Positions 34,768 to 35,007 of a stretch of DNA of 64,000 nucleotides are shown piece by piece (the stretch's first letter is position 1; the number at the start of each line of letters is the position of its first letter). The position numbers and the translations under genes are program-made. Below the pieces are notes generated by a model that did no database searches, had not been told where the DNA came from, and saw only the letters and a program-made list of their open reading frames with translations. The DNA comes from Candidatus Nomurabacteria bacterium (GTDB taxonomy: Bacteria > Patescibacteriota > Minisyncoccia > Phycocordibacterales > UBA918), in NCBI GenBank assembly GCA_020632155.1, contig JACKGE010000001.1:314285-378284 (forward strand), in the 5' to 3' direction.

Positions 34768-35007
34768 AGAGCGTGTATCCATTCGGAAATACGTTCTACG
34801 GACTGGAACGATTATATGAGTCTTCGGACTCGTTGTTAAATAGCCCGAGCCATAGTTACCTTCTTTGCAGAAATGTAAAGATAGTCCACACCAAGCCAAC
34901 AAGAGACCAAATGCTTGGCATCCTCACTCTGGCAACAGAGCGGATGAAGATAGAGTCCTATTGTGCACGCATCTACTAAGGCAGATGCCGTGAAGAAGGA
35001 AAAATAG
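34768..35007 (+). other. 240-nt ORF-less insertion at the 23S intron hotspot (E. coli ~1923-1931; CTAAGGT|...|AGCGTATTTCCTTGTCGGG). Candidate degenerate group I intron or IVS
   Basis: Exon context CTAAGGTAG/CG(A/T)ATTTCCTTGTCGGGTAAGTTCCGAC is interrupted. Upstream exon ends in U and the insert ends in G, as for group I. A 7-nt TAGAGCG repeat at both junctions makes the exact boundaries ambiguous by +/-6 nt. Confidence 0.4.

Follow-up and report, generated by a model that had tools for sequence, protein, structure and literature searches.

Is the 240-nucleotide (nt) insert that interrupts the 23S ribosomal RNA (rRNA) gene of a Candidatus Nomurabacteria bacterium a group I intron, and, if it is one, is it a degenerate remnant or a maintained element? 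The insert lies in a 64,000-nt stretch of contig JACKGE010000001.1 (GenBank assembly GCA_020632155.1, positions 314,285 to 378,284 of the forward strand), which was analyzed as a whole and is referred to here as the window. An earlier reading of the letters alone, called here the original prediction, had proposed a minimal or degenerate group I intron without an open reading frame (ORF). The results described below indicate that the insert is probably a group I-type intron with a group I catalytic core at site 1931 of the large-subunit rRNA (L1931), a reading to which we assign a probability of about three in four, and that its 5' half is built in an atypical way.

An Rfam scan of the window places a complete bacterial 23S rRNA at 32291..35961 on the forward (+) strand, the strand of all intron and exon segments described here. 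Global alignment of this 23S rRNA with E. coli rrlB shows a single 240-nt insertion at 34768..35007, exactly after E. coli U1931, thus confirming that a conserved exon sequence is split: the junction reads CTAAGGT, then AGAGCGTG...AAAAATAG, then AGCGTATTTCCTTGTCGGG. Apart from the insertion, the 3' exon differs from that of E. coli at two bases (AGCGTATTTCC here, AGCGAAATTCC in E. coli). Site 1931 lies between helices 69 and 71, at the ribosomal subunit interface. The homing-site neighborhood to which the insert had been assigned is correct as regards I-CeuI (site 1923) and site 1931 itself, but not as regards I-CreI, whose site we take to be 2593, away from this neighborhood. The base before the insert is U34767 and the last base of the insert is G35007, as had been noted from the single sequence, and both are invariant in an alignment of 54 distinct sequences of the family described below, each extended by 20 nt into the 5' exon and by 16 nt into the 3' exon; all statements about invariance and covariation refer to this alignment. 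The insert is also free of recognizable coding sequence, as proposed, since its two mechanical ORFs (68 amino acids on the + strand, 50 on the - strand) have no Pfam match. In what follows, intron base n corresponds to window coordinate 34767 + n.

The exact boundaries required attention because the original prediction had reported a TAGAGCG repeat at both junctions and an ambiguity of up to 6 nt. The repeat, TAGAGCG(T), is real, but the ambiguity is smaller: only three placements of the cut (shifts of 0, +1 and +2) restore conserved rRNA, and only shift 0 combines a U before the cut with a G at the intron end. The boundaries are fixed by the relatives, because the first intron base covaries with base 30 (AU, UA, CG, UG and GC are all found) and because helix P9.0 covaries immediately beside the terminal G. 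A 5' splice site after U34762, with a U.G38 wobble, was also considered and rejected, as the resulting rRNA would be non-canonical and G38 is A in 17 relatives.

The evidence for a group I core comes from the 3' half of the insert. The 5' strand of P3 (34891..34896, intron 124-129) pairs with its 3' strand (34913..34918, intron 146-151) in 100% of the alignment cells, and five of the six pairs are changed on both sides. Between these two strands lies the 5' strand of P7 (34903..34907, GAGAC with bulged A34904), which is part of the R element AGAGACCAAAUG, is invariant in the 54 sequences and aligns to the Rfam group I consensus. P8 follows directly after the 3' strand of P3 as a hairpin at 34919..34946, which has a GCAA loop in the window and in which four of the five basal pairs (152-156/175-179) covary. 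It is followed by J8/7 and the 3' strand of P7, which together form the S element at 34947..34958 (AAGAUAGAGUCC, invariant, matching the Rfam consensus AAGAUAUAGUC). P7 consists of four invariant pairs (intron 136 and 138-140 with 188-191, A137 being bulged); the P7 pairs and J8/7 are without change throughout, and hence there is no covariation for the P7 pairing itself. The 5' strand of P9.0 (34959..34961, UAU, intron 192-194) pairs with 35004..35006 (AUA, intron 237-239), all three pairs covary, and G240 next to them, the omega G (35004..35007 with the P9.0 strand), is invariant, so that the 3' splice site would lie after 35007. Between the two P9.0 strands the window folds a P9 hairpin (34966..34992, CAC-GCAUCU ... 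AGAUGC-C-GUG), which is variable in the relatives and is absent from the subfamily L076-L088 except in L079, L081 and L084 (L numbers denote loci of our collections).

The core thus displays the features that characterize group I introns, namely a P3/P7 pseudoknot, P8 directly after the P3 3' strand, a G-C pair in P7 beside the bulged base, and a P9.0 that presents the omega G. When pairs were counted for the explicit pseudoknotted structure, 95.5% of the cells held standard pairs, compared to 82.6% after shuffling (none of 500 shuffles reached the observed value) and to about 40% when the partners were slid against each other. The original prediction had named an undetectable P7/P3 core as grounds for abandoning it; that core is present, and P3, P7, P8, P9.0, the R and S elements and the terminal G of the proposed intron are all either invariant or compensated across the 54 sequences.

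The element is not confined to this genome. A scan of one genome per bacterial species, in which the 3' exon had to appear 35-65 nt downstream of the S element, gave 75 loci. At 44 of these (43 distinct sequences) the same site holds an intron of 215-306 nt that clearly represents the same element as the window insert; the remainder are canonical L1931 introns or introns at about 1923. All 44 members reside in 23S genes with the helix-69 variant TAACTATAATCGTTCTAAGGT (AAUCGUU), and nearly all are labeled in their records as Saccharibacteria, Parcubacteria/Paceibacteria, Kaiserbacteria, Nomurabacteria or 'Patescibacteria group'. A metagenome scan gave 13 further loci, mostly of a divergent subfamily without the P9 hairpin; its pattern used a spacer of 15 nt, compared to 14 nt in the main family, and therefore caught only part of the family. 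Counting the window, the collection comprises 57 copies (56 relatives), which measure 195-306 nt and all lie at the same site in 23S rRNAs of the type found in the Candidate Phyla Radiation (CPR, or Patescibacteria). In the data reached, no member lies outside the CPR/Patescibacteria 23S genes with the helix-69 variant AAUCGUU. None of the 57 copies contains a homing endonuclease gene, for which, at no more than 306 nt, there is no room. The closest 23S gene in the collections searched belongs to a Saccharibacteria metagenome-assembled genome (L014), at 90.7% identity for the whole gene and 84% for the intron. Distances between introns correlate weakly with distances between the flanking rRNAs (Spearman 0.29, Mantel p = 0.003), a result that is compatible with mainly vertical descent without proving it.

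Both kinds of allele to which the original prediction had pointed for comparison were found. The 1931 junction is intron-free in E. coli and, within the CPR, in a Kaiserbacteria relative of the window 23S (L026), where a different intron ends just before CCUAAGG; and endonuclease-bearing canonical L1931 introns (LAGLIDADG, identified by Pfam in the genome scan) are present in Pirellulaceae and Berkelbacteria records. The suggestion that the insert is degenerate did not hold. The family is instead conserved under purifying selection and is neither a one-off nor a remnant, and a decaying remnant is excluded by compensatory change across the 54 sequences.

The 5' half departs from what is expected of a group I intron. 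The P4-P6 domain is missing from where it normally lies, as only six bases (CAACAA) separate the 5' strand of P3 from P7. The position that P3 would occupy in a canonical arrangement (CCCGAGCC, intron 77-84, before CAUAG) was tried against 146-151 and rejected, since no more than 72% of its cells are paired and the outer pairs do not form, compared to 100% and covariation for 124-129; pairing of the same segment with GCUCGG in the downstream exon was likewise rejected, the exon being constant and the segment variable. Several helices precede P3. Hairpin A (34768..34797, intron 1-13/18-30) begins with the first intron base, resembles a P1 extension and has changes on both sides in all 12 of its pairs. 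It is joined by a linker of 1-2 nt (34798..34799; AC in the window and AC, AA, UA, UU, A or C in relatives) to strand c (34800..34804, GGACU, intron 33-37), which pairs with strand j (34883..34887, AGUCC, intron 116-120) in a P4-like or P2-like helix in which one pair, 36:117, is double-changed (29 sequences have C-G, 20 have U-A). Stacked on this helix is a GNRA-capped hairpin (34862..34881, intron 95-102/107-114), P5-like or P2-like, in which all eight pairs covary and the loop A is invariant. An optional UUCG hairpin (34818..34831, GAGUC UUCG GACUC) occurs as a hairpin insert only in the window, L014 and L017. The c/j helix and the hairpin stacked upon it lie upstream of P3, in the topological position of P2; this stack may stand in for P4-P5 or may be a P2 domain. 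The comparison supports, as judged from sequence, a 5' architecture that is unusual in its negative part, in that P4-P6 is out of place, no standard P1 can be drawn and the scores of model scans fall below threshold.

Three segments of the insert are complementary to the exons. The longest, guide d (34805..34817, GGAACGAUUAUAU, intron 38-50), would bind positions -18 to -6 of the 5' exon (34750..34762, E. coli about 1914-1926), comprising the 3' strand of helix 69 plus CU. It forms 12 base pairs (bp) in the window (38-49/50), whereas most relatives reach 13 bp, and pairing is found in 98% of cells; a 13-nt run complementary to the 5' exon is reached by 0.15% of dinucleotide shuffles of the intron. 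Six of the pairs change on the intron side only with the pair kept, five of these being U-A/U.G switches opposite an exon U, and four other pairs lose pairing in 1-5 sequences. The tail guide (34996..35002, AAGGAAA, intron 229-235) pairs in 98% of cells with positions +7 to +13 of the 3' exon (35014..35020, UUUCCUU, E. coli 1938-1944). Its pair 235:+7, the one double-changed pair, is A-U in 36 sequences and U-A in 16 and tracks the host exon, in which CAAUUCC replaces UAUUUCC. The third, segment h (34855..34862, GUUACCUU), contains at 88-95 the motif GYUACCUU, complementary to the ligated junction AAGGU/AGC, and is therefore a candidate P1/P10 guide. Its UACCU is present in all 44 genome-scan members, although not forced by the search pattern. 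At position 89 both U and C occur, and either can pair with G(+2). Position 95 covaries with the base (the closing end) of the GNRA hairpin instead. The end of the 5' exon itself (34763..34767, AAGGU) is invariant and lies directly before the covarying first intron pair, with the 5' splice site placed after U34767.

A fourth complementarity is less general. Intron bases 1-13 (34768..34780, AGAGCGUGUAUCC) are similar to bases +1 to +11 of the 3' exon (35008..35018, AGCGUAUUUCC), with which the 3' strand of hairpin A could form 11 bp. Such a copy of the beginning of the 3' exon, made up of the first 11-13 intron bases, is found in about half of the family; it gives the 3' strand of hairpin A 8-13 nt of complementarity to the exon and is the source of the TAGAGCG repeat. 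The 3' strand of hairpin A was rejected as a conserved P10 guide because the match is found in only about half of the family, has been lost from other lineages and is not restored where the exon has changed; the complementarity may be read as an ancestral or optional P10-like pairing that does not define the element.

Several results weigh against identification of the insert as a group I intron. When a 381-nt stretch was scanned with Rfam RF00028 (Intron_gpI), the model aligned the core, covering the R element, the S element (GAAGAUAGAGUCC), P3, P7 and P8, but scored only 20.9 bits (E = 0.003), below the cutoff of 50; no other credible Rfam family was found in the insert at a permissive threshold. 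In the same alignment 81 model positions belonging to P4-P6 are deleted, and no P4-P5-P6 domain is present between P3 and P7. No standard contiguous P1 can be drawn that would hold the U.G wobble assumed by the original prediction. Most of the exon-guide pairs are without true two-sided covariation because their exon partners are invariant, and the junction match at 88-95 is not significant in the single sequence (32% of shuffles equal it), for which reason this guide rests on invariance plus one compatible substitution. The 54 sequences are related and are not independent samples. Finally, removal of the insert from the pre-rRNA by splicing is something that we infer from these sequences.

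The base that would face the cleavage-site U(-1) deserves separate consideration. Candidates are A91, which is invariant and would be opposite U(-1) if 91-94 pairs with the exon; A31, present in 39 of 54 sequences, if hairpin A is extended; and G33. The latter is invariant, is the only conserved G able to form a wobble pair with U(-1), and sits where canonical guides (CGCU-G...) have their wobble G. However, G33 is paired with C120 in a covarying helix, and would have to give up C120 in order to face U(-1). Two other arrangements were rejected: an extension of hairpin A by G(-2)U(-1) with A31 C32 as P1, as the linker varies in both length and sequence, and pairing of guide bases 38-42 with 88-93, as G38A (17 sequences) and U89C (15) are uncompensated.

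Either the missing wobble and P4-P6 domain or the sub-cutoff Rfam score could mean that catalysis has been lost, in which case a group I-derived element would no longer be spliced and would persist as an expansion of the mature 23S rRNA. Retention has a precedent in the L1931 intron of Simkania (Everett et al., 1999, as it is cited in PMC11270868). We consider retention unlikely here, since the parts that serve catalysis and the 3' splice site (the G-site in P7, J8/7, P9.0 and the terminal G) are invariant or covarying in 54 sequences and since guides to both exons are maintained, one of them tracking a change in the host exon. Moreover, 240 extra bases would be hard to fit between helices 69 and 71 at the subunit interface.

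The missing wobble and the missing P4-P6 domain would also be expected if a group I-derived RNA carried out only a partial reaction, for example hydrolytic cleavage, or if it depended on a host protein or a trans-acting RNA in place of P4-P6. Engineered Tetrahymena ribozymes lacking P4-P6 are reportedly active, weakly and only under special conditions (Ikawa et al., 2000). Such a partial or assisted reaction appears improbable as well, because none of the 57 copies has an associated ORF and because conserved guides on both exons fit ligation rather than mere cleavage. An intervening sequence (IVS), which RNase III would excise with the flanks left unligated and the 23S rRNA in fragments, had been offered as an alternative by the original prediction. 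In its favor, the same gene carries two IVS-like inserts (32509..32723 and about 33716..33910), and such inserts are reported in CPR 23S genes (PMC11270868). It is nevertheless highly implausible, because the insert lacks the end-to-end pairing of those two inserts (z = -3.9; its 5' end folds into a local hairpin, and its 3' end is engaged in P9.0 and with the 3' exon), carries a group I core and lies at a site that is not among the known IVS helices.

The group I intron that we favor is best compared with the canonical L1931 introns (subgroup IB4; Thermotoga, Simkania, WPS-2, organelles, DPANN archaea and CPR site '23IS7'), which are inserted after the same U1931 (PMC6125680, PMC4192840, PMC11270868). 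Their 3' half is nearly the same (CAGAGACYA..., AAGAUAKAGUCC, P8 and terminal G). However, canonical introns (layout compared in L067, L069, L041, L057 and L002) have a guide, CGCU-GCCUUAG, immediately after the 5' splice site with a G opposite U(-1), and they have the 5' strand of P3 before CAUAU plus P4 (GCUGG/CAGC), P5 and P6, whereas the window family has neither this guide nor this layout; they also often carry LAGLIDADG genes, which the window family never does. The divergence is not an effect of size, because canonical ORF-less L1931 introns of similar length score 60-83 bits against RF00028 (L067, 244 nt, 82.9 bits; L069, 238 nt, 73.2 bits; L041, 253 nt, 60.2 bits), as against 26.8 bits for L014 and 20.9 bits for the window, with L007 and L077 not reported at all.

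In size (about 205 and 249 nt, respectively), lack of an ORF, a peripheral GNRA hairpin and P9.0 beside the omega G, the family resembles the Azoarcus tRNA-Ile and Anabaena tRNA-Leu introns; unlike it, these retain a full P4-P6 domain and a standard P1 with U.G, and they interrupt tRNA anticodon loops. RNase III-processed IVSs of 23S rRNA are likewise short and ORF-less, and co-occur with the insert in the same gene, but they are simple hairpins with a long terminal stem at helices 9, 25 or 45, whereas the insert has a pseudoknotted core, no terminal stem and a homing-intron site. The L1917 and L1951 introns of Coxiella burnetii are group I introns that interrupt a bacterial 23S rRNA within this helix 69-71 region, at sites different from that of the insert. 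One Coxiella 23S intron is without the canonical omega G, to go by the title of Raghavan et al. (2007) as cited in PMC11270868; Coxiella thus departs at the omega G and the window family on the 5' side, at P1 and P4-P6.

Insertions at 1931 are frequent in CPR 23S genes, and insertions were reported in 35 of 35 Saccharibacteria 23S genes, the introns being called with Rfam (PMC11270868). ORF-less IB4 introns at LSU (large-subunit)/1931 are as short as 248 nt in DPANN archaea (PMC6125680), and WPS-2 has a 707-nt LAGLIDADG intron at 1931 (PMC4192840). No description of a P4-P6-less or 'divergent' 23S intron in CPR was found in an incomplete search of the literature. The site and the host group were already known, and the rewired structural variant appears to be new.

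If the intron is spliced, an external guanosine would attack after U34767, and G35007, placed by P9.0, would then enter the P7 site, with joining of the exons. The exons would be held by separate guides: 38-50 on the 5' exon, which would require unwinding of helix 69, 229-235 on the 3' exon, and 88-95 on the ligated junction. Strand connectivity suggests a four-way junction in which 33-37 continues into 38-50, the exon spans from the first guide to the second, and 88-94 leads through the hairpin to 116-120. The crossovers would contain no more than one or two unpaired bases, and the substrate helix would then be built into the P4-P5-like stack rather than docking onto it. We offer this four-way junction with built-in exon guides as a hypothesis. 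Taken further, the family might constitute a naturally occurring class of ribozymes derived from group I introns, in which P4-P6 is gone from its normal position and conventional P1 docking is dispensed with. The exon-binding strands would form a four-way junction together with a P4-P5-like stack that precedes P3, hairpin A would stack in the place of P6, and the cleavage-site U would be either without a U.G pair or opposite G33 across the junction. Such a class would perform the same chemistry by a rewired scaffold and would be kept, without a homing endonuclease, in at least two CPR classes; this proposal as a whole is tentative, and we regard it as possible rather than probable.

At the level of group I introns at 1931 and of intron-rich CPR rRNA genes, both documented already, the insert is ordinary. 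Its 5' half, however, breaks two rules that are treated as universal, namely that P4-P6 lies between P3 and P7 and that a contiguous P1 contains a U.G pair. If spliced, it would show the extent to which the group I scaffold can be rewired in nature, and would offer, for structural and engineering work, a ribozyme of 200-240 nt with built-in exon guides of 12-13 bp and 7 bp. Because standard covariance models miss or under-score the family, surveys based on Rfam are likely to file its members as unclassified insertions. The intron would also sequester the 3' strand of helix 69 until its removal, and could thereby tie 50S assembly to splicing in organisms where the ribosome-biogenesis machinery is reduced.

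Some of the loci collected show further features. Thirteen genome-scan loci have an uninterrupted 1931 junction (CTAAGGTAGCG), among them L026 (at about 497), L005, L010, L019, L027, L029, L030, L044 and L047; in most of the thirteen, rRNA resumes only at CCTAAGG, corresponding to an intron end at about 1923, the I-CeuI site. In L081 (95-377) and L084 (821-1103) an upstream intron ending in ...GAUUUG lies 14 nt away, leaving between the two introns a 14-nt exon, AAUCGUUCUAAGGU, which recalls the short exon between two 23S introns of Coxiella. In L079 the rRNA breaks off again, from about 1066, right after CGGGUA (about site 1951). The 23S gene of L007 (Nomurabacteria) has three more Rfam group I hits elsewhere, at 5021-5266, 3666-3983 and 3104-3623 (57.3, 45.0 and 20.7 bits, only the first above the gathering cutoff). 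Two loci labeled Patiriisocius sp. (L022) and Acidimicrobiales (L035) combine CPR-type 23S flanks with the same intron family, and are probably mis-binned CPR contigs.

The 23S gene of the window contains other extra sequence relative to E. coli. A 215-nt insert at 32509..32723, after E. coli about 231, folds as one long hairpin paired end to end over about 20 bp (z = -10.2), resembling either an IVS of the RNase III type or an expansion segment. About 170 nt are extra at about 33716..33910 (E. coli 1162-1184, the helix-45 IVS site), again as an end-paired hairpin (z = -8.2), and neither of these two inserts has an Rfam match at a permissive threshold. Smaller insertions are found at 34527..34592 (66 nt, ~1763), 32809..32850 (42 nt, ~304) and 34681..34710 (30 nt, ~1854), and there are several deletions. 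By Rfam, the 5S gene is at 36054..36164 and the 16S gene at 51047..52506; the two rRNA loci are unlinked, the 23S-5S pair being about 15 kilobases upstream of the 16S gene with protein-sized ORFs between them. The 16S gene is short (1460 nt) and without insert, and a tRNA gene comes next at 53785..53858.

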